A DNA stretch of 64,000 bases from a virus: the IMG/VR virus record IMGVR_UViG_3300017991_000051, positions 32,001 through 96,000 of that record. One strand, given 5' to 3'. The notes below the pieces were generated by a model. That model did no database searches. It saw only the letters and a list, made by a program, of their open reading frames with translations, and was not told where the DNA came from. Both the position numbers and the translations under genes were made by a program. Position 1 is the stretch's first letter. Every line of letters starts with the position of its first letter. Below are positions 3,403 to 28,218 of this stretch, one piece after another.

Positions 3403-4063
3403 CGTCCATCCCCTTATGTTGAGCAAATGCGTGCATTAGCTCCGCCACCTCCGGAATAGCTTCCGCGTCATTTGGTGGATACTTTTCCAGCAGCGCCAGT
3501 GCTTGCTTAACTATATCGAGCATTTCACGCGTTGATTGCTGAAGCTTTCCGACCTGATTCATCAAGTCTTCTGCTATGGTGCTGGCCTTCCGACCTGTCT
3601 CGATATACTTCGCTACATCGTTCAGCAACGCACCCTCCGGCCATTCCAGCCCGTATTTCTTAAATATGCCGATCACTGCAGCAGTATCCCGCGCCTTCTC
3701 CTCACAGTTACTTTCGCTGTATATCGCGTCCAGCCACGGCTCCGCAGCATCCACCATCGCGTTGTTGATGTCGGAGTAGTCAGGGTGATAGAGCCAATAA
3801 TGGCCACCCATCTCGACCGACACACAGCCGCGGCGACGGTCAAACTGACTAAAGAACTTCCGCTTATCCTGCGGACGTACGAAATAGGTATCATAAAAGC
3901 CCAACCTGTTATAATGAGCTATGAAGGACGCATGCTGAATAAGGTGATTATAAAGCGCCTTCTTGAAGTGATCCAACTTGCACCCGTGTTTGAGGAAGGT
4001 CTTCCACTGCCGGAGTACCGTCTCCTTCTCCTTCGCTGTCATAAATTGAACATCTTTCATCAC
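3395..4063 (-). CDS. hypothetical phage protein
   Basis: 222 aa, GGAG RBS. Confidence 0.75.
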   Translation of the reverse strand: MMKDVQFMTAKEKETVLRQWKTFLKHGCKLDHFKKALYNHLIQHASFIAHYNRLGFYDTYFVRPQDKRKFFSQFDRRRGCVSVEMGGHYWLYHPDYSDINNAMVDAAEPWLDAIYSESNCEEKARDTAAVIGIFKKYGLEWPEGALLNDVAKYIETGRKASTIAEDLMNQVGKLQQSTREMLDIVKQALALLEKYPPNDAEAIPEVAELMHAFAQHKGMDDA

Positions 4064-4677
4064 TCACTCCTTCTCTCCCATATTGCGTTTTTGACCATAT
4101 CGATCACAGATTGACGATCTAATTCCGGATGATCGTCTTCGTCACACAACCACGACAGTACATGCTGTAATGCTGTATTCATAACCTCAGCACGCAGTAT
4201 CAGCCCGTCAACGCGCGCATACGACCGCGAAGAGTTTTCGAAATCGCAACGAACGCCATCGTCTAAATCTTTCTCACGCTCCATAGCATCGAGTTGATCG
4301 CGCGCTAGTTGCAACACGCACTCGATATCGTCGTCGCGGCGAGCCATAGGTATATCGTAGCGGTCGGACCATTCGCGAAGTACGTCCTCGCTACCACTAC
4401 CGATGTCTTCCCACTTCCTGATAGCTTTACGAACATAATCGTAACCGTCCGATGTCAGCGGATTATCAAGAAAACATTGACAATAATCACAGTGTTGCGG
4501 ACAGTCCGCCTCGCCTCCGCCGTCCGAGTAAGGACCCTTCGGGAAATCATCGGAATCGAATGTGGCCTCATCGTCCGGATTCTCCGGAGCCTCACCGTTA
4601 TCTGTAAGATCCTTCCGGACCTCGTCACCGCACTGCTCGCACAGCAACGCCGCTTGGTATAGATATACGTTCATCAT
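4060..4677 (-). CDS. hypothetical phage protein (CxxC...CxxC)
   Basis: 205 aa, AAGGAG RBS. Confidence 0.75.
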   Translation of the reverse strand: MMNVYLYQAALLCEQCGDEVRKDLTDNGEAPENPDDEATFDSDDFPKGPYSDGGGEADCPQHCDYCQCFLDNPLTSDGYDYVRKAIRKWEDIGSGSEDVLREWSDRYDIPMARRDDDIECVLQLARDQLDAMEREKDLDDGVRCDFENSSRSYARVDGLILRAEVMNTALQHVLSWLCDEDDHPELDRQSVIDMVKNAIWERRSE

Positions 4678-4684
4678 CGCTCCT

Positions 4685-4903
4685 TTATGTTCGTTTCCAA
4701 AACCGCGTCGCGTTTTTCCAGCGTACGCGTTCGCGTTCCGTACCTGGCGCCTGGTCGTACCCCACTACCTTGCGCCCGCAAACTGGACAACACTGCTGGT
4801 CGTCCGTTATCGCCGCCCCGCAACATTGCGTGAACATCGTACTGTTTGTTCCCTGTGGCATTAGCGGCACTATATCAACGATAACATCTTCGTTATAGTG
4901 CAT
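4685..4903 (-). CDS. small zinc-ribbon protein
   Basis: TQCCG...CPVCG, AGGAGG RBS. Confidence 0.7.
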   Translation of the reverse strand: MHYNEDVIVDIVPLMPQGTNSTMFTQCCGAAITDDQQCCPVCGRKVVGYDQAPGTERERVRWKNATRFWKRT

Positions 4904-4905
4904 GA

Positions 4906-5082
4906 TTACCTCCTCAGCTGTATCGCTGCTATAAACACAGTCGCAAACAATGCCCAGAAGAGCATCATCCCTATCGCATATTTTATTGCGTCACCATTAG
5001 TGGGACAGATATCCTGCGACGTACCGCGTTCCGGCCTGTTCACGCGTTCAGCGTTCCACCATTTTCTAAACCGATTTATCAC
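4906..5082 (-). CDS. small membrane protein (58 aa, not in the ORF track)
   Basis: AAAGGAGG RBS + GTG; hydrophobic C-terminus MMLFWALFATVFIAAI; start abuts attC1. Confidence 0.6.
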   Translation of the reverse strand: MINRFRKWWNAERVNRPERGTSQDICPTNGDAIKYAIGMMLFWALFATVFIAAIQLRR

Positions 5083-5092
5083 TACTTCCTCC

Positions 5093-5151
5093 TTTCAACG
5101 CGAAGCTGAAGGCGACGCGGTAGATCGCGCGCCTTAGCTCAATCGTTGGAA
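5093..5151 (+). repeat. attC1 (59 bp, family A)
   Basis: TTTCAAC GCGAA GCTGAAGG CGACGCGG TAGA TCGCGCG CCTTAGC TCAATC GTTGGAA. Confidence 0.9.
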
Positions 5152-5358
5152 CTCTTGATGAATCTCAAAAGCGTAAATAGTTTTCAGTACGGCTATCACT
5201 GCCTCAATATGTGGCTTGGCCACAAACTTCGGTGTGCATACTTTTCCGTCTGGGCTATGCTTCCATTCGTCGGGGCTCTCGGCCCACGCTTCCAGCTGGC
5301 CGTCATCCAGCGTCTTGAAATGAAACTGCCAATCGTGTCGAGGTAAAACCGATAACAT
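5134..5358 (-). CDS. cassette hypothetical protein (bottom strand)
   Basis: GGAGG RBS, MLSVLPRHDW..., stop inside attC1. Confidence 0.6.
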   Translation of the reverse strand: MLSVLPRHDWQFHFKTLDDGQLEAWAESPDEWKHSPDGKVCTPKFVAKPHIEAVIAVLKTIYAFEIHQEFQRLS

Positions 5359-5371
5359 AGGAGAATCCTCC

Positions 5372-5605
5372 ATGGCTCAGGTTATGAATGAACATTGCAT
5401 GCGTTTTGCTGGGCAGCTCCATACCGTTAGTCAGACATGGGACGAATACCAGCTAACCGTAACGATCAGTCCACCATCTAAGCCACTGGCGAAACGATTG
5501 TCACAGTTGTTGACACCGACGAACCAGCTAATGCTGATTTTCAACGAAGGTGCTTGGGAGTTCCAACAAGGAGCTGAAGGCGACGCGGTAAACCGCGCGC
5601 CTTAG
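5372..5605 (+). CDS. cassette hypothetical protein (top strand)
   Basis: AGGAG RBS, 77 aa, stop inside attC2. Confidence 0.55.
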   Translation: MAQVMNEHCMRFAGQLHTVSQTWDEYQLTVTISPPSKPLAKRLSQLLTPTNQLMLIFNEGAWEFQQGAEGDAVNRAP

Positions 5606-5619
5606 CTCAACCGTTGAAA
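5561..5619 (+). repeat. attC2 (59 bp, family A)
   Basis: TTCCAAC AAGGA GCTGAAGG...CCTTAGC TCAACC GTTGAAA; GAGTTCCAAC complements the cassette start GTTGGAACTC. Confidence 0.92.
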
Positions 5620-5627
5620 GGTAAACA

Positions 5628-5918
5628 TTATGGAACTTGAACAGTGTTGTCAGAATCCGGCGTGTCCGGACAAAGGTGCCCCGCTACACACTTATACCAC
5701 GGAGCTAATGGCTCACGAGGATCCAGCTCTACCCACGTCTGACACAATAGCGGATACGGACCGCCCGACTTCTCACACAGAGTGTAGCCCAACTTTTCTA
5801 CTTCTTGTCTGCTCAGCTTGCGGTCTGACACGAATGTTTCATCATGAGACACAACTGCAATCGTCCGCCCGTCATCGTCCAGAACGGGGGTCACTTTTGT
5901 AACTTGTGCTGCAAACAT
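5628..5918 (-). CDS. cassette hypothetical protein (bottom strand)
   Basis: AAAGGAGG RBS directly next to attC3, 96 aa. Confidence 0.6.
   Translation of the reverse strand: MFAAQVTKVTPVLDDDGRTIAVVSHDETFVSDRKLSRQEVEKLGYTLCEKSGGPYPLLCQTWVELDPREPLAPWYKCVAGHLCPDTPDSDNTVQVP
5630..5902 (+). CDS. cassette Cys-rich hypothetical protein (top strand)
   Basis: ATG 17 nt after the cassette GTT; CCQNPAC...CSACG. Confidence 0.5.
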   Translation: MELEQCCQNPACPDKGAPLHTYTTELMAHEDPALPTSDTIADTDRPTSHTECSPTFLLLVCSACGLTRMFHHETQLQSSARHRPERGSLL

Positions 5919-5928
5919 TATAACCTCC

Positions 5929-5987
5929 TTTCAACAAGGAGCTGAAGGCGACGCGGTTGCCCGCGCGCCTTAGCTCAACCGTTGTCT
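5929..5987 (+). repeat. attC3 (59 bp, family A)
   Basis: TTTCAAC...GTTGTCT, same core as attC2. Confidence 0.92.
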
Positions 5988-6226
5988 GCATTGAACTGGC
6001 GCTGTACTGGCTGCGCCATGATGATGTGCTGTGCTGCGTGAATCGCGCGGCGAAATTCGGTAGTTTCGTCGGAATGCACCGAGTTAAGTCGCACAAACTA
6101 GTTCCATGCGTCTGCCAGTCTGCTCACGACCGAATTTTCGGCGGCAGACAACAAAGAGGTGGACGGCGACACGGAAACCGCGCCGACCTCCTCTGTTGCT
6201 TCGTTGCGTTGTTCAGCGGTTTCCAT
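5975..6226 (-). pseudogene. cassette gene interrupted by an in-frame TAG at 6098-6100
   Basis: GGAGGTGA RBS + ATG inside attC4; reads METAEQ...LADAWN*FVRLNSVHSDETTEFRRAIHAAQHIIMAQ. Confidence 0.55.
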
Positions 6227-6249
6227 GCGCGTCACCTCCAGCGTTGGCA
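6146..6249 (+). repeat. attC4 (104 bp)
   Basis: AGACAAC AAAGA GGTGGACG...CGTCACC TCCAGC GTTGGCA; GCAGACAAC complements GTTGTCTGC. Confidence 0.85.
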
Positions 6250-6266
6250 ATGAAAGGAATACAGAG

Positions 6267-6455
6267 ATGAAGTACGTTGTTTATCTTGTCGGCCTACCAG
6301 TTGAAAACGGTATAGAAATCCGAAGTGATGAGGATTTACTAACTCTGTTTCGACAGGACGCCGACCCAAATCGTATTATCTCCGTCTCCCGTTATAAACC
6401 AAACGACACACTACTCCGCGTGTCGTCTATCGCGCTTCTCTCCAAGAAAGATTGA
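6267..6455 (+). CDS. cassette hypothetical protein (top strand, 62 aa)
   Basis: AAAGGA RBS, MKYVVYLVG... Confidence 0.6.
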   Translation: MKYVVYLVGLPVENGIEIRSDEDLLTLFRQDADPNRIISVSRYKPNDTLLRVSSIALLSKKD

Positions 6456-6584
6456 CGCGGCACGCTCAGCCGCGTTCGCAAGAGTAACTACGCGATCGAA
6501 AAACACCTTGTCCGGTTCTGCCGGATCTTTTTTACTGAGTTCACACTGAAGCACAATATTGAATCGTTCCTGCTTATAGTTCAT
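6411..6584 (-). CDS. cassette hypothetical protein (bottom strand, 57 aa, not in the ORF track)
   Basis: TAGGAGG RBS, MNYKQERFNIVLQCELSKKD...RRHAE*. Confidence 0.55.
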   Translation of the reverse strand: MNYKQERFNIVLQCELSKKDPAEPDKVFFDRVVTLANAAERAASIFLGEKRDRRHAE

Positions 6585-6865
6585 TTTAACCTCCTAATGA
6601 AATTGCCAACAACGCACTGCACGCTATCGGCGTAGGACGCCGAAGCGTGAGTGCAAACGTTCTGCTTTAGGGTTTCCAGCGCCACCAATGCTTCGTCAAT
6701 GTCGCGGATGTTCTCTTGCTCGGCGTCGTCACCGTCAAGGAAGCGTGCCATGTATGCTCTGGCTTTCCACGATTTCCGTGTGTCACGCAGCACCCGCTCG
6801 ATTGTGTGCAAAGCAGAACAATCGGATGGACAACTACCTTCATTCGCCGCGCTTCGCTTTCTCAT
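6581..6865 (-). CDS. cassette hypothetical protein reading through attC5
   Basis: Starts in the attC6 loop; stop overlaps the next ATG (ATGA). Confidence 0.55.
   Translation of the reverse strand: MRKRSAANEGSCPSDCSALHTIERVLRDTRKSWKARAYMARFLDGDDAEQENIRDIDEALVALETLKQNVCTHASASYADSVQCVVGNFIRRLK
6604..6665 (+). repeat. attC5 (62 bp)
   Basis: TGCCAAC AACGC ACTGCACG...CGTGAGT GCAAAC GTTCTGC. Confidence 0.85.
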
Positions 6866-6892
6866 TTCGGAGTGTCATCCTTTCCGTTAGAC
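6813..6892 (+). repeat. attC6 (80 bp)
   Basis: GCAGAAC AATCG GATGGACA...TGTCATC CTTTCC GTTAGAC; AAAGCAGAAC complements GTTCTGCTTT. Confidence 0.82.
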
Positions 6893-6898
6893 AGCAAC

Positions 6899-7144
6899 TC
6901 AGCGTGCAACGCCGCGAAGCTGCATGAACTTCTTTCCGATGCTTTCCACAACGCACTTAGCCTCTGCACCTTCCTCGTTGCGGACGTAGACCGTCTCACC
7001 GTTGCGGAAGATCGGCCACAACCTCTCATCTTGTAGGCTGTTGCGCTTCGGGCCTTCCATGCGGTCGAGGATCTCATCCCTCATGGACTTCAGGGTGGCC
7101 ACATCTTCCGCCGTCTCAAACGTTCCTGTATCTGGTCTTTGCAT
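6899..7144 (-). CDS. cassette hypothetical protein
   Basis: AGAAAGGA RBS, 81 aa, fills the cassette. Confidence 0.7.
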   Translation of the reverse strand: MQRPDTGTFETAEDVATLKSMRDEILDRMEGPKRNSLQDERLWPIFRNGETVYVRNEEGAEAKCVVESIGKKFMQLRGVAR

Positions 7145-7163
7145 GTCTGTCCTTTCTGTTGCT

Positions 7164-7220
7164 GTCTAACAACTCACTTGAACCGACGCCTAAAGGCGCG
7201 GCTCACTTCGGGCGTTAGAT
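7164..7220 (+). repeat. attC7 (57 bp)
   Basis: GTCTAAC AACTC ACTTGAAC...GTTAGAT; 13-bp cassette-end complement GTTAGACAGCAAC/GTTGCTGTCTAAC. Confidence 0.85.
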
Positions 7221-7469
7221 TGCCCTTGTGTTCCAGTTGTCCAACGCCTTTTCAAGCGTTTCTCCTGTTGTCTGCGGAGTCACAGGGCATTCCTCGTTGT
7301 CACAGCCCACAAAGTGTTTGGTCGGTGCGCCTCCGTGCCACGGCTCAATGTCTGGCAACATGCCGCAGAATGGGCAATCTAACAAAGCACTGGACTGTAC
7401 TTCTGAAAGCCGCACGTCCGACTTGCCTGAGTGTGATTCAAACACATAGCATCCATTCTCATTTATCAT
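7215..7469 (-). CDS. Lar family restriction alleviation-like protein (cassette)
   Basis: LLDCPFCG...FVGCDNEEC...EKALDNWNTRA is the Lar-like pattern; RBS and ATG lie in the attC8 loop. Confidence 0.75.
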   Translation of the reverse strand: MINENGCYVFESHSGKSDVRLSEVQSSALLDCPFCGMLPDIEPWHGGAPTKHFVGCDNEECPVTPQTTGETLEKALDNWNTRAI

Positions 7470-7519
7470 CGTTGTTCCTTTCCCCGGCTTTCAGAAGCCA
7501 GTCAGTTTATGCGTTGGGT
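7377..7519 (+). repeat. attC8 (143 bp, long loop)
   Basis: ATCTAAC AAAGC ACTGGACT..CTTCTGAAAGCCG...CGGCTTTCAGAAG..AGTCAGT TTATGC GTTGGGT. Confidence 0.85.
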
Positions 7520-7522
7520 TGC

Positions 7523-7714
7523 TCAGTCCTGTCCCTGTCCATGTGACGGCCCCTGTACGAGCCGGTACATCTCCGGCGGAAGGCTGAAGTTTAGAAACTG
7601 ATCGCAGTCCTTCCAACCGTCTTCCCTCAACGCTTGCAGTTTGGTATCCGTCATTCCCCATGCAATCATCAGCTTGCCCATTTCGACTGCCTGTTCTCTT
7701 GTGTAGCCTTTCAT
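7523..7714 (-). CDS. cassette phage-type hypothetical protein
   Basis: AAGGAGAAGG RBS; MKGYTREQA...WKDCD...YRLV. Confidence 0.7.
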   Translation of the reverse strand: MKGYTREQAVEMGKLMIAWGMTDTKLQALREDGWKDCDQFLNFSLPPEMYRLVQGPSHGQGQD

Positions 7715-7736
7715 CGTCCTTCTCCTTTCGTTCGCA

Positions 7737-7794
7737 ACCCAACAACCCCGTGCACCCGACTCGCTAAGGCTCGCGGGTAACGGCGGCGTTAGAT
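7737..7794 (+). repeat. attC9 (58 bp)
   Basis: ACCCAAC AACCC CGTGCACC...GGTAACG GCGGC GTTAGAT. Confidence 0.85.
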
Positions 7795-8043
7795 TTCCAG
7801 CCTTAGCAACTCAACAACTTTACGGTCCTGTTCGTTTCCTGTCTCAATCGTCAAACGGCCTTCCTCGAACGCCCTTCGCACGAATGGTCCCAACAAGCCG
7901 ACTTGATCCCCGTACACTTTCATCTTGTCATAGATGTAACCGATACTGTTGCCCATGTAGGTCTGGTTTGCCAACGAATGTTGTAGGTGCTCGATTTCAT
8001 CCTTCAACTCATTCAGATCGTCCAACTCAACCTCAACCTTCAT
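7789..8043 (-). CDS. cassette hypothetical protein
   Basis: AAGGAGG RBS, MKVEVELDD..., stop on the GTT(A) crossover site. Confidence 0.7.
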   Translation of the reverse strand: MKVEVELDDLNELKDEIEHLQHSLANQTYMGNSIGYIYDKMKVYGDQVGLLGPFVRRAFEEGRLTIETGNEQDRKVVELLRLEI

Positions 8044-8067
8044 ACCTGCCTCCTTTTGCGGCTGGAA

Positions 8068-8127
8068 ATCTAACAACTGCGTGGACGTTATCGGCTACCC
8101 GCCGAAACGTCACGCGACGCGTTGGAC
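8068..8127 (+). repeat. attC10 (60 bp)
   Basis: ATCTAAC AACTG CGTGGACG...CGTCACG CGACGC GTTGGAC; 15-bp cassette-end complement. Confidence 0.87.
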
Positions 8128-8306
8128 ATATTGACTGCCGCGTGCGCAACGGGCTTGCCGCAGATCACGCATTTCCCGGCGCTGTCCGGCCTGACTTTGT
8201 GCTTGCCGCCCATGTAGCAAGCGCCATAATACAACCCGCACCACTTACGATGCTTGGCCCAGTCGAACACCATGAGTCCGCATCTCGGGCACTTGTCACA
8301 CGTCAC
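8088..8306 (-). CDS. cassette Cys-rich small protein
   Basis: AAGGAG RBS + GTG; CPRCG...CVICG. Confidence 0.6.
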   Translation of the reverse strand: MTCDKCPRCGLMVFDWAKHRKWCGLYYGACYMGGKHKVRPDSAGKCVICGKPVAHAAVNMSNASRDVSAGSR

Positions 8307-8322
8307 GTTGGTTCTCCTTCCT

Positions 8323-8358
8323 GCCCAACAACTCACTTGAACCGACGCCTATCGGGCG
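8323..8358 (+). repeat. attC11, truncated or internally deleted
   Basis: Left arm identical to attC7 (AAC AACTC ACTTGAACCGACGCCTA); right arm missing. Confidence 0.65.
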
Positions 8359-8360
8359 TA

Positions 8361-8561
8361 TCATCCTCGCCTCGCTTTCTCGCACCGCTTGCACAGGCGA
8401 CGGTTCGGTGGGGGGTGGGTGGTTTCGTGCCAGCCAGCCCATTCGTGCCAAACAGTTAAGCAGTTGGTTATCCCCCAATGCTCGCGCTCGGTGACGTGAA
8501 ACCTGTGGCGGATTACATGGTACACCCTGCCTCGGGCGGTGTGGGCGTAGCGGGGGGTCAT
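8361..8561 (-). CDS. hypothetical protein (non-cassette segment)
   Basis: MTPRYAH...LCKRC; coupled to the upstream ORF. Confidence 0.5.
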   Translation of the reverse strand: MTPRYAHTARGRVYHVIRHRFHVTEREHWGITNCLTVWHEWAGWHETTHPPPNRRLCKRCEKARRG

Positions 8562-8761
8562 AATGCACCATCCTCGTCGGGCCGCTGGTGGTCGCTGGCA
8601 AGACGCCCCAAGCGCACCCGCACGTCGGGGTGCAGAAGGTTGTTGCCATCCAGCCAACACTCAAACTCATGTAGGATGCCGTTGACGCCAACAGTCACGA
8701 GGCACTCCTGAATGTTCTCTACGCGCTGGTCTAGGAATGTTCCGAATAATGATGGTCCCAT
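8558..8761 (-). CDS. hypothetical protein (non-cassette segment)
   Basis: AAGGAGG RBS, MGPSLFG... Confidence 0.55.
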   Translation of the reverse strand: MGPSLFGTFLDQRVENIQECLVTVGVNGILHEFECWLDGNNLLHPDVRVRLGRLASDHQRPDEDGAL

Positions 8762-8858
8762 TTTGCCCTCCTTTGTCGTGCCTTCCTCATATCGCCTTCC
8801 GGCAAATCTGCTCGCCACGGGGTCCAATATCCTGTTATCAGGCAAAATCGCCTGTCAA

Positions 8859-9065
8859 TCAGTGGTTGGGCGTATCACTTTCACCGCCTCCCACGAAATG
8901 CGGAATGGTACACCCCGCAAACATCGCCGCCTTTTGCAGAAAGTCCTGCCGACCCTCGGCGGTGTCATCGGGAGGCCACACAAACTTCTCGATGATTTCC
9001 TTGGCCCGCGTCAGTTCCTCGTTCAACTCCGTGATCTTGATCGCTCGTCTGTCTGCCTTGTTCAT
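8859..9065 (-). CDS. cassette hypothetical protein
   Basis: GAGGAGG RBS, MNKADRRA... Confidence 0.65.
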   Translation of the reverse strand: MNKADRRAIKITELNEELTRAKEIIEKFVWPPDDTAEGRQDFLQKAAMFAGCTIPHFVGGGESDTPNH

Positions 9066-9076
9066 CGGTCCTCCTC

Positions 9077-9138
9077 GCCCAACCAAGGGCTGCAATCTAC
9101 CTCGCTATTCGCTCGGAGCTTGAGCCCCGGCGTTCTGC
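9077..9138 (+). repeat. attC12 (62 bp)
   Basis: GCCCAAC CAAGG GCTGCAAT...CTTGAGC CCCGGC GTTCTGC. Confidence 0.8.
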
Positions 9139-9368
9139 GCCATTCGTTTCTTGGCCTCATTCTCAAGCTCAAGCCGTCGTATTTCATTTTCAACCTTCAT
9201 TTCCCAATCAAGCTCTTGCAGATTGTGGGCCTTAATCCATGAATCTACTCGCCGCTTCTTGATCCACTCCGTATAGCGCAGAACAAGGCGCTGGACACTA
9301 CGGCTTGCCCGCAGTTTCCAAACCCGACCCATTCTGCACAGCCATTGCCACAGATTCTCGTGCATCAC
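9105..9368 (-). CDS. cassette hypothetical protein starting in the attC13 loop
   Basis: AAGGAGG RBS inside attC13; 87 aa. Confidence 0.65.
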   Translation of the reverse strand: MMHENLWQWLCRMGRVWKLRASRSVQRLVLRYTEWIKKRRVDSWIKAHNLQELDWEMKVENEIRRLELENEAKKRMAQNAGAQAPSE

Positions 9369-9413
9369 GCCTCCTTGTTGTCGGCAAGCCGAGTGTCAGC
9401 TTGCACGTTGGAG
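9278..9413 (+). repeat. attC13 (136 bp, long loop)
   Basis: GCAGAAC AAGGC GCTGGACA..CGGCTTGCC...GGCAAGCCG..TGTCAGC TTGCAC GTTGGAG. Confidence 0.85.
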
Positions 9414-9424
9414 TAACCAAAACA

Positions 9425-9667
9425 ATGAATAATGAAAATACCTTATGGGAGCAACTTGATGATGCTCTGAAGCGTATCGAGCAACTTGAGCACCAAGTAG
9501 CTACGATCCGGAGGAAGACTAGCGCGAGCATCAATGGGTACGCCCGCGTTCTCCACAAGATCGCCGCCCACTTGGGTCTCAGCCGGTGTTTCACATTTTG
9601 CAGCACGATCGATGTCGGCGATGCTGACAGAGTCGTTATGCGGCATATTACACCTCCTTTAGATTAA
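9425..9667 (+). CDS. cassette coiled-coil protein (paralogue of 10898-11143)
   Basis: MNNENTLWEQLDDALKRIEQLEHQV...; many differences from the paralogue are synonymous in this frame. Confidence 0.75.
   Translation: MNNENTLWEQLDDALKRIEQLEHQVATIRRKTSASINGYARVLHKIAAHLGLSRCFTFCSTIDVGDADRVVMRHITPPLD
9443..9646 (-). CDS. antisense cassette ORF (paralogue of 10916-11122)
   Basis: AAAGGAGG RBS + ATG; codon-registered antisense to the top-strand gene. Confidence 0.45.
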   Translation of the reverse strand: MPHNDSVSIADIDRAAKCETPAETQVGGDLVENAGVPIDARASLPPDRSYLVLKLLDTLQSIIKLLP

Positions 9668-9671
9668 AAAA

Positions 9672-9730
9672 CTCCAACAAGGAGCTGAAGGCGACGCGGT
9701 TGCCCGCGCGCCTTAGCTCAACCGTTGGAA
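9672..9730 (+). repeat. attC14 (59 bp, family A)
   Basis: CTCCAAC...GTTGGAA. Confidence 0.92.
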
Positions 9731-9736
9731 ACCGAT

Positions 9737-9964
9737 ATGAAAAAACAAAACACAAAAGCATTGCTCGACCGCCTAGACGAACTTATCGATCAGTTGCCAA
9801 CCGATGAACAACGCCAGTTCCATGTTCACGCGCTGTGGAATTTGTTGTCTCTGCATGCCATTGCTGATGTGCAACGTAAACTTGCTCTAATGTCAGGCTT
9901 GTTCGGTCTCCTTGGCGTGCTTCTCGGCGCGGCTCTAACATACATAATACAACGGTACAAATGA
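9737..9964 (+). CDS. cassette small membrane protein (top strand)
   Basis: MKKQNTK...; C-terminal hydrophobic helix GLFGLLGVLLGAALTYII. Confidence 0.65.
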   Translation: MKKQNTKALLDRLDELIDQLPTDEQRQFHVHALWNLLSLHAIADVQRKLALMSGLFGLLGVLLGAALTYIIQRYK

Positions 9965-10016
9965 CCAAGCCGGTAACAATACCAATACAGCCACCGATAA
10001 TTCCATGGGATATCAT
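9783..10016 (-). CDS. antisense cassette membrane-anchored ORF
   Basis: AGAGGAGG RBS; N-terminal hydrophobic helix IIGGCIGIVTGLVICTVVLCML. Confidence 0.5.
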   Translation of the reverse strand: MISHGIIGGCIGIVTGLVICTVVLCMLEPRREARQGDRTSLTLEQVYVAHQQWHAETTNSTAREHGTGVVHRLATDR

Positions 10017-10035
10017 AAACACCTCCTCTAATTGT

Positions 10036-10094
10036 TTCCAACAAGGAGCTGAAGGCGACGCGGTAGATCGCGCGCCTTAGCTCAACCGTTGTGA
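10036..10094 (+). repeat. attC15 (59 bp, family A)
   Basis: TTCCAAC...GTTGTGA. Confidence 0.92.
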
Positions 10095-10097
10095 AAT

Positions 10098-10316
10098 ATG
10101 ATTATTCAAGTACCTAACTCATTACGTCGTCGGTTTGTTGCGGGCTGCCGAACGCTCGGGCTCGATCCGAGTCTAAGCGTTGATCTATCGAAAGATCAGT
10201 TGCCCGAGTATCATGTACAGACAGAGACCCCGGAACAGCGGGCGGGTTTGCATCGTCTCTGCGCAGCCTTATCGCTCTCGCAAGAACAACTGCCGCCGCA
10301 TGCCGAAGAGACGTGA
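10098..10316 (+). CDS. cassette hypothetical protein (top strand)
   Basis: 72 aa; resembles 11545-11778 (LxxLCAA...PH). Confidence 0.55.
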   Translation: MIIQVPNSLRRRFVAGCRTLGLDPSLSVDLSKDQLPEYHVQTETPEQRAGLHRLCAALSLSQEQLPPHAEET

Positions 10317-10461
10317 GTAGAAATATGTCGTCAGGTTCAACGTATTTGCGAAGCTCGGGTTTTATCTCAAGCACACCCATGTCAAAATATGCGTACTCTC
10401 CGTCTTTGTTTATCAATGAGCCCGGTACTCTATCGTTCAAAAATTCCAATATATCGATCAT
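10114..10461 (-). CDS. cassette hypothetical protein (bottom strand)
   Basis: GGAGGT RBS, MIDILEFL..., 115 aa. Confidence 0.6.
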   Translation of the reverse strand: MIDILEFLNDRVPGSLINKDGEYAYFDMGVLEIKPELRKYVEPDDIFLLTSLRHAAAVVLARAIRLRRDDANPPAVPGSLSVHDTRATDLSIDQRLDSDRARAFGSPQQTDDVMS

Positions 10462-10473
10462 GTATACCTCCAT

Positions 10474-10534
10474 TCACAACAAACGGCTGGAGCTTACCGG
10501 CTAAGGCGCCGGAAGCTCAGCCGCATCGTTGGAC
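10474..10534 (+). repeat. attC16 (61 bp, family B)
   Basis: TCACAAC AAACG GCTGGAGC TTACCGGC TAAGGC GCCGGAA GCTCAGC CGCATC GTTGGAC. Confidence 0.9.
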
Positions 10535-10809
10535 TTAAGATAGGAACACAGTTCATGAACGAAGTTATTCAACAGATCAAGGAGCACTTCGCCGCTGGGG
10601 CCTCCTCCGTGACTCTCGTCTACTCCGACCGCACTGTGTTCATACACGCTCTTCCGCGGAATCCGAGTCCGGAGCAGACCTACGCCTATCGCGCGTTCTG
10701 TTCTCGAATCGAAAAAGATCTCGATACTCTCCATGTTATTGACGTCCGGCAAGGAGTTTGGCTCCGCCAGTACGACACCGTTTCCGGAAAATTCAGTCTT
10801 GTCCGCCAT
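10501..10809 (-). CDS. antisense cassette ORF (102 aa)
   Basis: CAGGAGG RBS, MADKTEF... Confidence 0.5.
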   Translation of the reverse strand: MADKTEFSGNGVVLAEPNSLPDVNNMESIEIFFDSRTERAIGVGLLRTRIPRKSVYEHSAVGVDESHGGGPSGEVLLDLLNNFVHELCSYLKSNDAAELPAP

Positions 10810-10815
10810 GATTAA
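10555..10815 (+). CDS. cassette hypothetical protein (top strand)
   Basis: AGGA RBS, 86 aa, fills the cassette. Confidence 0.6.
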   Translation: MNEVIQQIKEHFAAGASSVTLVYSDRTVFIHALPRNPSPEQTYAYRAFCSRIEKDLDTLHVIDVRQGVWLRQYDTVSGKFSLVRHD

Positions 10816-10827
10816 AACCTCCTGATT

Positions 10828-10886
10828 GTCCAACAAGGAGCTGAAGGCGACGCGGTAAACCGCGCGCCTTAGCTCAACCGTTGGAG
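10828..10886 (+). repeat. attC17 (59 bp, family A)
   Basis: GTCCAAC...GTTGGAG. Confidence 0.92.
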
Positions 10887-10897
10887 TAACCAAAACA

Positions 10898-11143
10898 ATG
10901 AATAATGAAAATACCTTATGGGAGCAACTTGATGATGCTCTGAAGCGTATCGAGCAGCTTGAGCACCAGGTTGAAACGATCCGAAGAGAGACCAATACGG
11001 TCATTAACGGATACGCCCGCGTGCTCCACCACATCACCACCCTTCTTAAAATCAGGGATGACGTTGTGCTTTGCGACACTACCGACGTCGGTAGTGAGAA
11101 CGTGATCATGCGTCGTGCCCATAATAAACCTCCACTAGATTAA
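10898..11143 (+). CDS. cassette coiled-coil protein (paralogue of 9425-9667)
   Basis: First 25 aa identical to the paralogue. Confidence 0.75.
   Translation: MNNENTLWEQLDDALKRIEQLEHQVETIRRETNTVINGYARVLHHITTLLKIRDDVVLCDTTDVGSENVIMRRAHNKPPLD
10916..11122 (-). CDS. antisense cassette ORF (paralogue of 9443-9646)
   Basis: GGAGG RBS; same stop position as the paralogue. Confidence 0.45.
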   Translation of the reverse strand: MGTTHDHVLTTDVGSVAKHNVIPDFKKGGDVVEHAGVSVNDRIGLSSDRFNLVLKLLDTLQSIIKLLP

Positions 11144-11149
11144 AGAAGA

Positions 11150-11208
11150 CTCCAACAAGGAGCTGAAGGCGACGCGGTAGACCGCGCGCCTTAGCTCAAC
11201 CGTTCGCA
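11150..11208 (+). repeat. attC18 (59 bp, family A)
   Basis: CTCCAAC...GTTCGCA. Confidence 0.92.
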
Positions 11209-11225
11209 AATAGAAAGGAAACGTA

Positions 11226-11480
11226 ATGACTCCAGACCAGCAAGCCGATCTTGAAGGACGTCTCCTCATGCTGGAAGCGCTCGTTCAGATGTTTCTGGTG
11301 GAACATCTTCGCCGAGCGCCTGATATCGTATCGGATGCGGGAGCGCTGACCACCGACTGCCTGAAGTCGTTTGCTTCTGCGCCCCCTCCAGTTTCTGAGC
11401 GAGCTGCCGCAAGATTGCGGCAACTGCTTGACGCAAGTATCGCATGCGCATCTGTACTTCCTCCTTTTCCTTTGTATTGA
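11226..11480 (+). CDS. cassette hypothetical protein (top strand)
   Basis: AAAGGA RBS, 84 aa, stop just before attC19. Confidence 0.65.
   Translation: MTPDQQADLEGRLLMLEALVQMFLVEHLRRAPDIVSDAGALTTDCLKSFASAPPPVSERAAARLRQLLDASIACASVLPPFPLY
11266..11451 (-). CDS. antisense cassette ORF
   Basis: AAAGGAGG RBS, 61 aa. Confidence 0.45.
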   Translation of the reverse strand: MRMRYLRQAVAAILRQLAQKLEGAQKQTTSGSRWSALPHPIRYQALGEDVPPETSERALPA

Positions 11481-11483
11481 TGT

Positions 11484-11542
11484 TGCGAACAAGGAGCTGA
11501 AGGCGACGCGGTTGCCCGCGCGCCTTAGCTCAACCGTTGGCA
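11484..11542 (+). repeat. attC19 (59 bp, family A)
   Basis: TGCGAAC...GTTGGCA. Confidence 0.92.
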
Positions 11543-11896
11543 TTATGATTGTAGATCTATCCAATCTTCCTCAATCCACGCTTGTCGCGCTAACGCAAGC
11601 CAGTCGCGAGTGCGGATTGACCGTTTCGAGTTCAGCTCCGGTATCTCCACTGGGCCCGACCAGCCTACGGATATATCTTGATCGGACTGAACTTCCGATG
11701 TTACAGCAGCTTTGCGCCGCACAAGGCGTTCGGCTAAATCCTTGGCCACATCTGCCAGACGCTTTGCAAGCCACTTAGTATCCTCAAGCTCCAACGGCTG
11801 ATACGCCGCACGGACCGCCATCGCCCCAAAAACGATGCAGCGGTCATCAACAACTACGTCGATTAGCGGATGAAGAACATCTGTAACCTCTATCAT
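11543..11896 (-). CDS. cassette hypothetical protein (bottom strand)
   Basis: AAGGAG RBS, 117 aa. Confidence 0.6.
   Translation of the reverse strand: MIEVTDVLHPLIDVVVDDRCIVFGAMAVRAAYQPLELEDTKWLAKRLADVAKDLAERLVRRKAAVTSEVQSDQDISVGWSGPVEIPELNSKRSIRTRDWLALARQAWIEEDWIDLQS
11545..11778 (+). CDS. cassette hypothetical protein (top strand)
   Basis: MIVDLSNL...LQQLCAA...PH; resembles 10098-10316. Confidence 0.55.
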   Translation: MIVDLSNLPQSTLVALTQASRECGLTVSSSAPVSPLGPTSLRIYLDRTELPMLQQLCAAQGVRLNPWPHLPDALQAT

Positions 11897-11913
11897 GATA
11901 TTGACTCCTTACA

Positions 11914-11974
11914 TGCCAACAATCGGCTGGAGCTTACCGGCTATGGCGCCGGAAGCTCAGCCGCAACGTTACGC
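11914..11974 (+). repeat. attC20 (61 bp, family B), last site of the array
   Basis: TGCCAAC AATCG GCTGGAGC...GCTCAGC CGCAAC GTTACGC. Confidence 0.9.
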
Positions 11975-12130
11975 AGGCCAACACTTGAACCCAGCAGGAA
12001 GGCGCCGTACGCCTTCCCACTCTCGGGCCCACTTCCTCGCGCCCGCCTCGTCAACGGGCTCCTCGAACTCGACAGGCCCCAGCGCATACGCGTCACGGGG
12101 AAACTTTACATACCATCTCTTCGCTATCAT
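11969..12130 (-). CDS. small hypothetical protein (53 aa, not in the ORF track)
   Basis: MIAKRWYVKFP...FKCWPA*; its TAA overlaps the final GTT. Confidence 0.6.
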   Translation of the reverse strand: MIAKRWYVKFPRDAYALGPVEFEEPVDEAGARKWAREWEGVRRLPAGFKCWPA

Positions 12131-12134
12131 GACC

Positions 12135-12812
12135 TTACCTCACTACAAATCCTGTTGTGTCCCTTCGTGCATCCCCCTTCGCGCTCAATCCCACCACCGC
12201 CGGCGATGGATCGAGAAAGCGTAGATCACTGTCGTCACCCGTGAGTACGGGGTAACCCCAGTGGGTTTGCGGAATCTTCTCGAATATGACTGCTACGTTG
12301 TGCCCGGCCGCGAGGGTGCGCTTGCACGCCGCCTCGTTACATATGCCCCGACTGAGCAACAGGTAGTAGTTAGGACGCTTCACCGTCCGCACCCGCCTCG
12401 ATGAACGGGTGTAGTCGTAGAACTGGACCGATGGAAACCGCGCCATGATATTGCCGAACTCCGGCGAATACCACGGGATATCGCTCGTGCCATTCAGACG
12501 CACGGCCGGGCCCATACCCTGCCGGTACGCTTTCCTGACGAGCGCAGCGATATCGTCGCACAGCTGATCGATGAATCCCCCACGATCATCGAACAACCAG
12601 CGCGTCTTCCTGATCCTCGATTCCTTTACGCTATCAAACTGTCCTCGACCTGCCGTGTACAGGCAAGCCCTGCGACAGCCTCTGTCCGCGAATGGGCAGA
12701 CGTTATACTTTCGTCCTGCGTTTGTTGCCGACGCTAAGTGAAGAATTCCCGTGAGCCACCCCTTCTTCTCACCCTTCCGGGTCTTAGCGTTCGACGTCGT
12801 CAGTAATCTCAT
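12135..12812 (-). CDS. phage Gp88-like protein
   Basis: NVCPFA..GCRRACL..AGRG, VRLNGTSDI, VQFYDYT and GDDSDLRFLD motifs. Confidence 0.8.
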   Translation of the reverse strand: MRLLTTSNAKTRKGEKKGWLTGILHLASATNAGRKYNVCPFADRGCRRACLYTAGRGQFDSVKESRIRKTRWLFDDRGGFIDQLCDDIAALVRKAYRQGMGPAVRLNGTSDIPWYSPEFGNIMARFPSVQFYDYTRSSRRVRTVKRPNYYLLLSRGICNEAACKRTLAAGHNVAVIFEKIPQTHWGYPVLTGDDSDLRFLDPSPAVVGLSAKGDARRDTTGFVVR

Positions 12813-12823
12813 TGTGTGTCCCA

Positions 12824-12847
12824 ATTTTGTATTACGATACAAACTCT
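12824..12847 (-). promoter_or_regulatory. palindromic operator/promoter-like motif, copy 1
   Basis: ATTTTGTA-TTACGA-TACAAACTCT; related copies at 44065 and 57347. Confidence 0.55.
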
Positions 12848-12850
12848 TTA

Positions 12851-13099
12851 TCAGAGTAAACCTAGTTCATCGACCAGCTCACCGAACGTGGGAGCCGGCT
12901 CGTCCAACGCTTCTTCGACGGCTTCCTTGCCGCCCTCTATCTGCTCCGGAGCATAAACGTCCCATGTCTCCACGTGGACGCCTCCCATCTCCGTTCGTTC
13001 TTTGCGGCAGAATACGCGACCGTCCGCCGTCCATCTCAGGGGCGTCACGGACACATTACCTTTCGCAAGCGTCACCTTCGGATCGTCGTCAGTGTACAT
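12851..13099 (-). CDS. hypothetical protein
   Basis: 82 aa. Confidence 0.65.
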   Translation of the reverse strand: MYTDDDPKVTLAKGNVSVTPLRWTADGRVFCRKERTEMGGVHVETWDVYAPEQIEGGKEAVEEALDEPAPTFGELVDELGLL

Positions 13100-13174
13100 T
13101 ACGCGCCCCCATAAAGAAAACGCCCAGCGAGTCCCCCCGCTGGGCGTCGTTAACTGCTATCATGGTCGCGGCTA

Positions 13175-13939
13175 CTACCGCTTCTTGCCCTTCTTGGGCT
13201 TCGGCGGTTTGACAACCTCCGCTACGCGCTCGAACGCTTCCTTCGCAAGGTCCCGCTGCGTGTTCCACGTGCCGACGAGAGACTCGAACGCGCTGTTACC
13301 GGCGTCGAAATGCTCGTACGCCCGCTTCATCCGGTCCGGATCATCGCCGTAGCAGATGGTCTCAACATACCTGCCGATGGCCTTCAGCTTCTGCTCGAAC
13401 AGCAGAATAAGGTTCTCCGAGTTCTTCACCACGCGGACGGCCTGCGACATGTTCTTCGCATCCTGATCCACCTCCGCGGGCTTCCCGGATCCCAGCCGCT
13501 TGGCCAACGCGTCCTTGACATCGAACGCCGCCGGCTTCTGCATGCTCTTGACCGCCTCCTCGAGGATGGCATTGCGCACCTCGGGCGTGACGTTCTTGCT
13601 GCATAGCAACAGCGCCTTACGAAGCGACAGCGTCGCCTCCTGCGCCATCTGCAGCTGCTTCTCCGTGAAGTTCTTCTTGATCGACTGCGCGTCGTACAGG
13701 GATTCCTTACCGAGCCGGATCTTGCCGGCCTCGAACAGGTCCTGCGAGAACTTCTCCACGCTCTGCTTGCCGTACTTGTCGTGCTGGGACGTCAGCTCCT
13801 CGACCTTCGCACCCAGGTTCCAATAGAACTCGAGCGACCGGCTGTAGAACTGGCGGGCCATTACCACCGTCTCACCAACCAACTGTTTGTAGTTGACCGA
13901 CGGAGACTGATTCCTTCTCTTCGCTACTGCTTTACTCAT
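13175..13939 (-). CDS. protein with a DUF1016 (YhcG) N-terminal-like domain
   Basis: FYWNLGAKVEE...KYGKQSVEKFSQDL; AGGAGAGG RBS. Confidence 0.6.
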   Translation of the reverse strand: MSKAVAKRRNQSPSVNYKQLVGETVVMARQFYSRSLEFYWNLGAKVEELTSQHDKYGKQSVEKFSQDLFEAGKIRLGKESLYDAQSIKKNFTEKQLQMAQEATLSLRKALLLCSKNVTPEVRNAILEEAVKSMQKPAAFDVKDALAKRLGSGKPAEVDQDAKNMSQAVRVVKNSENLILLFEQKLKAIGRYVETICYGDDPDRMKRAYEHFDAGNSAFESLVGTWNTQRDLAKEAFERVAEVVKPPKPKKGKKR

Positions 13940-13952
13940 GTGTTCCTCTCCT

Positions 13953-14408
13953 CTAGTCCAACGGCCGCGCCTGCAACACGTGATTTTTACGTGTGCGCAT
14001 GTCGCGGAACAAGCCGCCGAATACGTTGACCATCTTGATTCTCGCCTCAATGTTGAGCAGGCTATGTGCCGTACGTCGCGATTCCAGCGACATGCCGGAG
14101 GCGTCAGCTTCCATCAGGATGCGCCGTTCCTCCGGGCTGAGTCCGTCCTGCAAGACGTTCTCGATGTCCTTCGAGCACATCACGCCCAATACCGTCTTGA
14201 GATTCATCACCAACCGAATGACGGGTGATGCGTTAGCCAATTTCTTGAATAGCCCATACGTGGGCTGTGAAAGCCGCCGTTCCAACACCTCCGCCAACAA
14301 TCTCTCCAGACGGGGTGCAGTGGTCGCAATCTGTTCCAACCGCTCTATCGGCTGTTGCATACCCAGGTCGGGCTTAGGCTTGGAAAAACCTTTACCTTTG
14401 CTGCCCAT
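13953..14408 (-). CDS. hypothetical protein
   Basis: 151 aa, GGAGG RBS. Confidence 0.7.
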   Translation of the reverse strand: MGSKGKGFSKPKPDLGMQQPIERLEQIATTAPRLERLLAEVLERRLSQPTYGLFKKLANASPVIRLVMNLKTVLGVMCSKDIENVLQDGLSPEERRILMEADASGMSLESRRTAHSLLNIEARIKMVNVFGGLFRDMRTRKNHVLQARPLD

Positions 14409-14934
14409 AACATACCTCCTTGCTCAGCCTCCAATCGAATGCACGCTTCAGCATCGCAACGAACCCGGTTAGCGGGTCTACTACGTACTCGTCTCCCGGC
14501 AACTCCACGCGCCAGTACGGCTCCTCCTTACACAGGTATGCTTCCGTACAGTTGTGGATTACCATCTCCGGCATACCGTCGCCAACGCTGGCGAAGATAA
14601 CGCCGACCAGTCCGTCGGGATAGCTGTCTCGCGCCTCCTCCATCTCGGTGTAGATCCGGCTCTTCTCCGGTTTCTTCATCAGCGCCGTGAACGGAACCTT
14701 CTTCGCGGACTTGTACGATGCGAGCCGAACCGGAAAGTTCGGGCAAGCTTGCACGAACCACGCGAGTCCGAACTCGTCACCAACGAGCTTCTGCAGTCGG
14801 GACGCAAGTCCCGCTTCCTCCTCCAGGCCGCGGAGCAGTATGAGCAGAGCCTTCTGATCAAACCGCTCCTGCTTCTGCCTGAAGTCGCTCTTCTTCTGCA
14901 GGCCGAGGAATGTCTCCATCTCCGGATCATGCAT
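14392..14934 (-). CDS. hypothetical protein
   Basis: 180 aa, coupled to the RecA-like gene. Confidence 0.7.
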   Translation of the reverse strand: MHDPEMETFLGLQKKSDFRQKQERFDQKALLILLRGLEEEAGLASRLQKLVGDEFGLAWFVQACPNFPVRLASYKSAKKVPFTALMKKPEKSRIYTEMEEARDSYPDGLVGVIFASVGDGMPEMVIHNCTEAYLCKEEPYWRVELPGDEYVVDPLTGFVAMLKRAFDWRLSKEVCYGQQR

Positions 14935-16126: not shown

Positions 16127-16160
16127 CTTATTTACCTCCAACCTGTGCAAAATATGCACA

Positions 16161-16182
16161 GGACCGGCCCGAAGGCCGGTCC
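16161..16182 (-). terminator. intergenic hairpin
   Basis: GGACCGGCC-CGAA-GGCCGGTCC. Confidence 0.45.
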
Positions 16183-16208
16183 CATGCGGTTATAGTCACT
16201 TGAACTGA

Positions 16209-17582: not shown

Positions 17583-17602
17583 CTTTTCCTCCGTTTTTTC
17601 AG

Positions 17603-20599: not shown

Positions 20600-20600
20600 G

Positions 20601-20942
20601 TTATCCTCGTATGAATTTGCTCGTTTCTATCCACATGTGAATAGCTTTCTTTCGTGACGGCTGCAGGCTCGCATGATTCGGGCCCATCCAGCCGCACTTC
20701 GGACAGCGGACCTGCCACCAGCCGGTCCATGGCCCCTTCGCCACCTCCTCCACGATCGGTTCGGTACGACACAGCTTGCATCGTCCCGGCTCCTCATCGG
20801 GTACCTCCGGAGGACGTCTACGTGACTTCGCATTGCATCCGGGGCACCGTTCGAACTGCTTAACGCTCTCGTATATGTAACCCTTCTTGCACGCGAGACA
20901 GCGTATATAGATGTCACCGTAGTGCTCGTACCACTTAGGCAT
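20601..20942 (-). CDS. zinc-finger protein with a Lar-like C-terminal domain
   Basis: CLAC..CPGC and CKLC...WQVRCPKCG...KAIHMW. Confidence 0.6.
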   Translation of the reverse strand: MPKWYEHYGDIYIRCLACKKGYIYESVKQFERCPGCNAKSRRRPPEVPDEEPGRCKLCRTEPIVEEVAKGPWTGWWQVRCPKCGWMGPNHASLQPSRKKAIHMWIETSKFIRG

Positions 20943-28146: not shown

Positions 28147-28218
28147 TGGTGGGCGGGGATGGATTCACACCACCGACCTCCGGGTTGTAGCCCGGCGCTC
28201 TTACTGAGCTACCCGCCC
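28147..28218 (-). tRNA. atypical tRNA or pseudo-tRNA (Val-like body, 6-nt anticodon loop)
   Basis: GGGCGGG/CCCGCCC acceptor + ACCA, GCTC/GAGC D stem, CCGGG-CTACAA-CCCGG, T arm GGTGG-TGTGAAT-CCATC. Confidence 0.7.

Follow-up and report, generated by a model that had tools for sequence, protein, structure and literature searches.

We found an array of 19 complete attC recombination sites of the integron type in a phage genome that encodes no integron integrase. The array occupies positions 5093-11974 of a 64,000-nucleotide stretch of viral DNA (hereafter the window), which comprises bases 32001-96000 of the 169,252-bp virus record IMGVR_UViG_3300017991_000051; coordinates below are those of the window unless a contig is named. 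Besides the complete sites (57-143 nt), the region holds one broken 5' half and two 3' remnants, and the attC top strand is the + strand for every site. The 19 intact sites delimit about 20 gene cassettes. At least two attC sites without an integron integrase define a CALIN (cluster of attC sites that has no integron integrase; Cury et al. 2016, PMC4889954); with 19 attC sites and no intI, the array is thus a CALIN, and an unusually large one. We consider it probable that this large CALIN, residing in a phage without an integrase, was built as cassettes of the type recombined by the integron integrase IntI, and that its genes are read by phage transcription.

The array consists of attC sites in architecture and polarity

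The window sites are true integron-type attC sites in both their architecture and their polarity. The inverted core ends AAC (R'') and GTT (R') are kept in all 19 sites, as a script check established, and a second inverted pair, L''/L', is set off from the R box by a short unpaired spacer, with a variable terminal structure whose length differs between sites. This one layout is common to ten or more unrelated inner sequences. All short sites carry an extrahelical G and then an extrahelical A, on the 5' arm of the + strand only and with the same spacing as in the attC sites of dfrA, cmlA1 and estX. In a scan of the whole 169-kb genome for AAC...GTT brackets around an energy-dense hairpin, strong candidates were confined to 5093-11974, each with two bulged bases on the 5' arm (G, then A). 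The class 1 arrays in the Escherichia coli P1 record MH445380 and the Vibrio anguillarum array in MK672802 served as controls; the scan recovered the attC sites of both control integrons with the same layout, the bulges lying on the 5' arm of the gene-carrying strand.

A covariance model whose only seeds were three class 1 attC sites from a different record (aadA1, aadA2 and cmlA1) gave 13 matches in the window with default filters (E<=0.0016), all on the + strand and all inside 5093-11974, and the next best match in the 64-kb window had an E value of 0.78. With filters off, 15 of the 19 sites were recovered at E<=0.0014. Scores reached 19-47 bits on the + strand versus 6-15 bits on the reverse strand. 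The model had no match outside the array in the whole 169,252-bp genome and none at E<=1 in other phage loci totalling about 94 kb, and it recovered non-seed class 1 sites as well as the sites of Tetrasphaera phage TJE1, among them experimentally validated ones, at 17-33 bits. Being derived from class 1 sites it is narrow, missing the long Vibrio attC sites and four long window sites (6146-6249, 6813-6892, 7377-7519 and 9278-9413); MAFFT could not align the long Vibrio sites with short ones. The four long sites were placed by hand, through their R''/L''...L'/R' boxes and bulged G, and two of them take the canonical shape as their minimum-energy fold.

The sites and remnants are the following (bit scores from the covariance model; cassette-pair runs are numbers of pairs between a site and the starts of cassettes, as explained in the next section):

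5093-5151, +, attC 1 (family 1), leftmost site; 34.2 bits; R'' without an inverted partner upstream
5561-5619, +, attC 2 (family 1); 47.1 bits
5929-5987, +, attC 3 (family 1); 35.9 bits
6146-6249, +, attC 4, with a long variable terminal structure, 96 nt from AAC to GTT; 13.3 bits only; an R box and a bulged L box form in the fold of the bottom strand, and cassette pairing holds on both sides
6453-6478, +, 3' half remnant of a family-2-like attC, inside cassette 4; repeat family D5
6605-6665, +, attC 5; 19.3 bits, E 0.0014 with filters off; fold
6813-6892, +, attC 6, long and weakly folding; bulged-G boxes placed by hand; cassette-pair runs 7 and 10; the L box forms in the fold, z +1.0
7164-7220, +, attC 7 (57 nt); 45.4 bits
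7377-7519, +, attC 8 (143 nt); canonical fold, z -2.1; cassette-pair runs 9 and 7; contains the start of a Lar-like gene
7737-7794, +, attC 9; 22.8 bits
8068-8127, +, attC 10; 20.4 bits
8323-8416, +, broken attC, a 5' half like attC 7 without a 3' half; 8.5 bits, E 2.1; repeat D6
8840-8871, +, attC 3' remnant; its R' box, the GTT at 8865, is complementary to the R'' of the cassette that follows, run 5
9077-9138, +, attC 11; 22.6 bits
9278-9413, +, attC 12, long, 128 nt from AAC to GTT; bulged-G boxes placed by hand; cassette-pair runs 6 and 5; minimum-energy fold non-canonical
9672-9730, +, attC 13 (family 1); 44.6 bits; fold z -6.7
10036-10094, +, attC 14 (family 1); 37.2 bits
10474-10534, +, attC 15 (family 2); 21.6 bits
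10828-10886, +, attC 16 (family 1); 45.1 bits
11150-11208, +, attC 17 (family 1); 33.3 bits
11484-11542, +, attC 18 (family 1); 42.3 bits
11915-11974, +, attC 19 (family 2), rightmost site, followed by phage backbone; 23.8 bits; without a downstream partner

Eight near-identical copies of family 1 and two copies of family 2 make up the repeats in this region. An original prediction, made from the sequence alone, had described 19 complete and one broken attC of 57-143 bp in a single orientation, with eight near-identical copies and a second family of two members. Our count and lengths are the same, and the repeat analysis agrees with the two families. The AAC/GTT layout with extrahelical bases, also read in that prediction, is borne out by the folds and by the class 1 covariance model, and the covariance search of the whole genome, a check it had named, returned 15 sites, all of them in the array.

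One cassette (6244-6659) departs from the simple unit of one gene and one site: its + strand gene (6267-6455) and its - strand gene (6411-6584) converge on the remnant 3' half at 6453-6478. It looks like two cassettes that were fused once half a site was lost.

Cassette ends carry a footprint of recombination

In integrons, the bases past the G of R' belong to the next cassette. R'' is therefore expected to match the beginning of the cassette to which it belongs rather than the adjacent R'. This own-cassette pairing holds in 18 of 18 cassettes, with 4-12 perfect pairs beyond AAC/GTT (mean 6.4), compared with mean runs of 0.8 for the partners in situ and 0.9 for random partners; none of 20000 permutations reached the observed sum. 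The own-cassette R boxes are perfect over 7-15 bp. Judged from this footprint at the G|TT of R', each inter-site unit was in all likelihood once a circle closed on its own attC. Integration as circles had already been deduced from reverse-complementary cassette ends in the original prediction, and the complementarity proves to be general.

At least one cassette was duplicated as a unit:

9408-9724, +, duplicated cassette, with its copy at 10881-11202; alignment, and blastn 78% over 327 nt

The similarity between the two copies is bounded on the left and on the right by predicted G|TT crossovers. Both copies have the same type of right-hand attC but different left-hand attC sites, as expected if each cassette moves together with the attC found at its top-strand 3' end. 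The pairing and duplication results speak against an insertion of whole palindromes between genes. At the left end of the array, R'' of attC 1 lacks an upstream partner and no recognisable element was found to its left. Promoter-like sites in the array occur at the expected frequency (7 found versus 6.8 expected), and attI is too poorly conserved to search for.

Most cassette genes are inverted relative to their attC sites

An independent gene caller placed 21 of the 24 array genes on the - strand, antisense to the canonical cassette polarity and co-oriented with the phage genes; the - strand holds 79 of the 89 long open reading frames (ORFs) of the window. The other three called genes are on the + strand, i.e. 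in canonical orientation. Most cassettes of the array thus lack the canonical layout, an ORF on the attC top strand that starts after R' and stops at or within its own attC. In almost all cassettes, a - strand ORF opens with a complete Shine-Dalgarno sequence and an ATG, which are found between a few and about 25 nt to the left of the R'' of that cassette (farther away in cassette 1, and inside the attC in long sites). Three - strand genes (7215-7469, 7789-8043 and 10501-10809) are backed by homology, by which they can be regarded as proven to be real. This inverted gene polarity is new beyond the reading of the original prediction.

The extensions of the R boxes are purine-rich inverted repeats that resemble Shine-Dalgarno sequences in both directions, a property that is general in the array. 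At 5613-5640 and 5916-5935, GTTGAAAGG precedes a + strand ATG and its complement precedes a - strand ATG. Such bidirectional extensions may explain why both strands often look translatable. Several - strand cassette genes end inside or at the neighbouring attC (10501-10534, 5134-5147 and 7789-7791), and moving a cassette whose gene ends in this way would alter the tail of the protein.

Cargo genes and a second phage with an array at the same locus

The cassette genes with detectable relatives and the gene next to the array are listed here:

7215-7469, - (antisense to the attC top strand), Lar-like restriction alleviation gene; PF14354 E 5.5e-6, phrog_599 E 3.2e-7
7789-8043, -, 84-aa cassette gene, helical; 9 homologs with 49-63% identity
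10501-10809, -, 102-aa cassette gene; 3 homologs with 42-45% identity, E 3e-14 to 9e-7
12135-12842, -, GP88-family phage gene flanking the array; PF17338 E 7e-46; 52% identity to a protein of contig L028

The Lar-like gene, whose PF14354 match falls just under the cut-off, looks like an anti-restriction gene by these matches, and it was the only one of 30 array ORFs from both strands to be matched in Pfam and PHROGs. The 84-aa gene stops with TAA, which reverses the TTA in the R' box. A structure model of its product (predicted local distance difference test, pLDDT, 83) had no fold match in PDB, and its homologs reside in phage-like contigs with tightly packed small genes, in which attC sites were not found. 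The 102-aa gene overruns the crossover by 28 nt into the neighbouring attC; the model of its product was too poor for a fold search (pLDDT 59). Homologs of an 80-aa + strand ORF and of a 117-aa - strand ORF were not found.

Homologs of the 102-aa gene are located on contigs L030 and L027-L029, the latter three representing one phage from three samples. On these contigs, an attC lies 17-23 nt upstream of the start of the homolog, on the opposite strand. This second phage has at least seven attC sites (L028 2507-4359, L029, L027), which obey the cassette rule on inspection by hand. One of its site families has the L box in common with family 2 of the window, and the R-box ends of the homologous 102-aa cassette are the same in both phages. 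A GP88 gene lies about 1.8 kb away from its array and shares 52% identity with the GP88 gene that flanks the array of the window. Several of its R' boxes read ATT instead of GTT at the crossover base, which may reflect decay or a different specificity. Since a second phage has a matching arrangement by GP88, the inverted order of attC, Shine-Dalgarno sequence and gene is evidently not a one-off accident of the window genome. On contigs with other GP88 relatives (L020-L022, 45-46% identity) attC sites were not found, and a 291-aa flank protein had no relative in IMG/VR.

That the phage may carry cassettes between hosts, as originally proposed, finds less favour with these results: with phage-type cargo and inverted genes, the array looks less like a means of ferrying host cassettes. 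Because of its - strand genes, their phage-type homologs and the second phage with the same locus, it looks more like a phage-adapted cassette bank.

A complete phage genome without a recombinase

The 169,252-bp virus record has direct terminal repeats and its completeness is rated 100%. The window encodes a replication module with a family A polymerase, a DnaB-like helicase, a UvsX-like recombinase and an SbcC-like protein; these replication proteins are only about 25% identical to those of cultured phages, and many window phage proteins could not be assigned to a family. The array lies in the early or replication-side region of a complete, apparently non-integrating phage. The DNA polymerase (17603-20599, -) has an N-terminal uracil-DNA glycosylase domain (PF03167, precomputed Pfam). 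An Rfam search of the window matched only one tRNA gene (28147-28218, -, 53.5 bits), to which ARAGORN assigns no anticodon. The guanine-plus-cytosine (GC) content is 51-54% within the array versus 57-60% in the rest of the genome. Measured over 4001-12000, the array lies 4-7 points below the rest. The adenine-thymine skew flips its sign in 10001-12000, and the composition of the family-1 cassettes differs from that of the phage backbone.

Contigs of the Logan assembly of run SRR6963352, made with another assembler from reads that may be those of the first assembly, are 100% identical to the window. The first contains phage genes up to 5133, inside attC 1, the second covers 6204-9435, and the third, 11511-21896, starts within the array, passes GP88 and reaches the polymerase. 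Repeated attC sites are the only places where these contigs break. Cassette genes are also present on three contigs of 50-200 kb. The flanks are phage genes, as originally described, and both array junctions are spanned by contigs of the second assembler.

No tyrosine recombinase or IntI was found in a six-frame search of the complete genome with PF00589 and TIGR02249, to which the controls responded, and the same six frames gave no match to the Y1 transposase (PF01797). The sole other recombinase signal is a sub-threshold, resolvase-like frame of 15.9 bits with an in-frame stop. The lack of a tyrosine recombinase, first noted for the window, thus extends to the complete genome. With no recombinase in the genome, any recombination would have to use a host enzyme. 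Of the two sources of IntI originally considered, a gene elsewhere in the phage is excluded by this search, and a host IntI stands as the presumed enzyme.

The search of bacterial genomes for a donor of the 59-bp attC, which the original prediction had asked for, yielded neither donor nor host. The family-1 pattern and the family-2 pattern had no match in IMG/VR. Among 185,579 species genomes, the family-1 pattern matched only once, within a coding region of a Verrucomicrobiota genome, and this was dismissed as a chance match. In metagenomes, the family-1 pattern led to one 1.4-kb contig (L002), in which an attC with a family-1-like core (316-376, -, 19.2 bits) stands behind a canonically oriented ORF. 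This site is the only hint of a tie to ordinary integron cassettes.

Discussion

Small CALINs are known from phages. Qi, Rajabal, Ghaly, Tetu and Gillings (2023, PMC9892861) reported 17 CALINs in 10,705 phage genomes, with 2-4 predicted attC sites each in their supplement; the only large array in their study, of 16 sites, is a fragment of a Vibrio chromosomal integron with intI in a temperate phage, and most of the phage sites that they assayed were recombined by IntI1. The window array resembles the CALIN of Tetrasphaera phage TJE1, which is likewise an attC cluster without intI and with short site architecture (TJE1 sites scored 17-33 bits in our model). It differs from published phage CALINs in its size, 19 versus 2-4 sites, and in its recurrence beside the same gene in a second phage. 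Moreover, the genes of TJE1 lie on the attC top strand, in the canonical manner, whereas 21 of the 24 called window genes lie on the bottom strand. No later publication on large or inverted phage attC arrays came up in full-text literature searches.

Bacterial CALINs and sedentary chromosomal integrons (PMC4889954; Vibrio anguillarum MK672802) have in common with the window array the many small-gene cassettes, each pairing at its ends with the attC that belongs to it. A homogeneous attC family that predominates, here with 8 of 19 sites, is likewise typical of sedentary chromosomal integrons. Such integrons, however, are large arrays of highly similar attC sites on a bacterial chromosome beside intI, whereas only 8 of the 19 window sites belong to one family and the replicon of the window is a virus with direct terminal repeats and no intI. 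In the Vibrio and class 1 controls the top strand carries the genes, and the polarity in the window is the inverse. With the class 1 sites of aadA1, aadA2, cmlA1, dfrA and estX (MH445380) the window sites share the succession of AAC, 3-5 nt, 5 bp, a bulge, 6 bp, a bulged A, a loop, 4-6 nt and GTT. On the top strand G is the base that bulges first, which is also the case in cmlA1, estX and dfrA, and scores are up to 47 bits. Unlike class 1 integrons, the array has no resistance genes, and there is no sequence identity beyond the site consensus.

The array could have arisen by a first insertion of a cassette, through IntI, at a secondary site in the phage genome. Insertion of this kind at secondary genomic sites is a subject of the preprint by Loot et al. 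(10.1101/2022.09.11.507474), and it would provide a route into a phage with no recognisable attI; the right end of the window array, an attC followed by backbone, resembles its outcome. The portion of the preprint on which we draw does not show such insertion for phage DNA, and the left end of the array is without the expected bare cassette start. Exchange between attC sites by the IntI of an integron-bearing host could then, during infection, have led to gain, loss and reordering of cassettes; as the phage has no recombinase, this turnover would depend on host IntI. Most cassette genes, being on the attC bottom strand, would be read by the leftward transcription of the phage and not from the cassette promoter Pc, and the cargo would comprise small phage accessory genes, one of them anti-restriction-like.

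We further propose, more tentatively and with some doubt, that certain phage lineages keep a polarity-inverted cassette system, in which a GP88-syntenic array borrows host IntI and small host-takeover or anti-defence genes are swapped among phages. In such a system, phage transcription would express the bottom-strand genes, so that neither attI nor Pc would be needed, and the strand that recombines would be the G-rich one, presumably the lagging template.

Several observations weigh against an actively exchanging array of inverted cassettes. The + frame of the duplicated cassette is somewhat better conserved than the - frame led by a Shine-Dalgarno sequence (ratio of nonsynonymous to synonymous substitution rates, dN/dS, 0.36 versus 0.57; substitutions by codon position 21/14/28, p about 0.1); both tests lean to the + frame but are not decisive. 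Because of this conservation, gene polarity is not uniform, or not settled for every cassette, and a few cassettes, possibly including the duplicated one, may be canonical. Several - strand ORFs cross the crossover or run through an attC, a poor fit with frequent movement. No rearrangement was seen among contigs, the other large contigs with cassette genes having mostly the same neighbours. No IntI-bearing host came to light, and searches of the 185,579 species genomes and of IMG/VR did not recover the family-1 attC. Finally, the four long sites were called by hand, and two of them do not adopt the canonical fold.

Some of these points would also suit a frozen relic, that is, an array built by IntI that no longer recombines and whose hairpins now act as intergenic RNA structures (stabilisers, processing sites or attenuators), which we regard as unlikely. 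The genome without an integrase, the identity of the array in the second assembly, the mostly constant neighbours, the ORFs crossing into neighbouring sites, the ATT for GTT in several R' boxes of the second phage and the broken and half sites are all in line with it. Decay, however, would erode what the sites have kept: AAC/GTT in all 19, both bulges at each site that allows the check, and R boxes that match their own cassette perfectly over 7-15 bp. The eight near-identical sites and the cassette duplicate of about 78% identity point to fairly recent events, and T-tract terminators after the hairpins are at chance level (12 versus 9.4 expected).

It is less probable still, and in our view distinctly so, that a recombinase of unrecognised type, phage-encoded or otherwise distinct from IntI, acts on the folded hairpins, which would make the system integron-like but not an integron. 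An array at the same locus in two phages with no known recombinase family found, a polarity opposite to that of IntI-driven integrons and the many phage proteins without a family could be explained in this way. The sequence, spacing and bulges of the sites nevertheless resemble class 1 closely enough for 33-47 bits on the covariance model, which has three class 1 sites as seeds, and this is the geometry that IntI reads; similar phage attC sites were recombined by IntI1 (PMC9892861).

That the sites are not attC at all but intergenic phage palindromes, either PeSL-like (promoter early stem-loop) regulatory cassettes of the T4 type or REP-like (repetitive extragenic palindrome) elements shuffled by homologous recombination, is very improbable. 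They do lie between small genes of a plastic region and include a repeated family, but strand-specific bulges within a single architecture recur in about ten unrelated inner sequences, promoter-like sites are about as frequent as chance predicts, and the complementarity joins the start and the end of a gene unit, as recombination at R' predicts, and not the arms of a hairpin. A piece of a host chromosomal integron joined by misassembly or mispackaging, which the lower GC content of the array and its homogeneous attC family might suggest, can practically be dismissed in view of the identical second-assembler contigs across both junctions (from reads that may be shared), the three contigs of 50-200 kb with cassette genes, the co-orientation of cassette and phage genes, the cargo homologs in phage contigs and the second phage with an array beside GP88.

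The reading of a large phage CALIN, built as IntI-type cassettes and transcribed with the phage genes, bears on the relation between phages and integrons. Its 19 sites, inverted polarity, phage-type cargo and syntenic counterpart in a second phage suggest that phages exploit host integrases to maintain banks of exchangeable accessory genes. Integrons are gene-capture devices of bacteria, and recent work has revealed that chromosomal integrons store cassettes for anti-phage defence; if our suggestion is true, the phage cassette bank would mirror these defence banks. The system thereby bears on the origin of integron cassettes, on the selection of cassette orientation and on a common cassette pool of phages and bacteria in their arms race.

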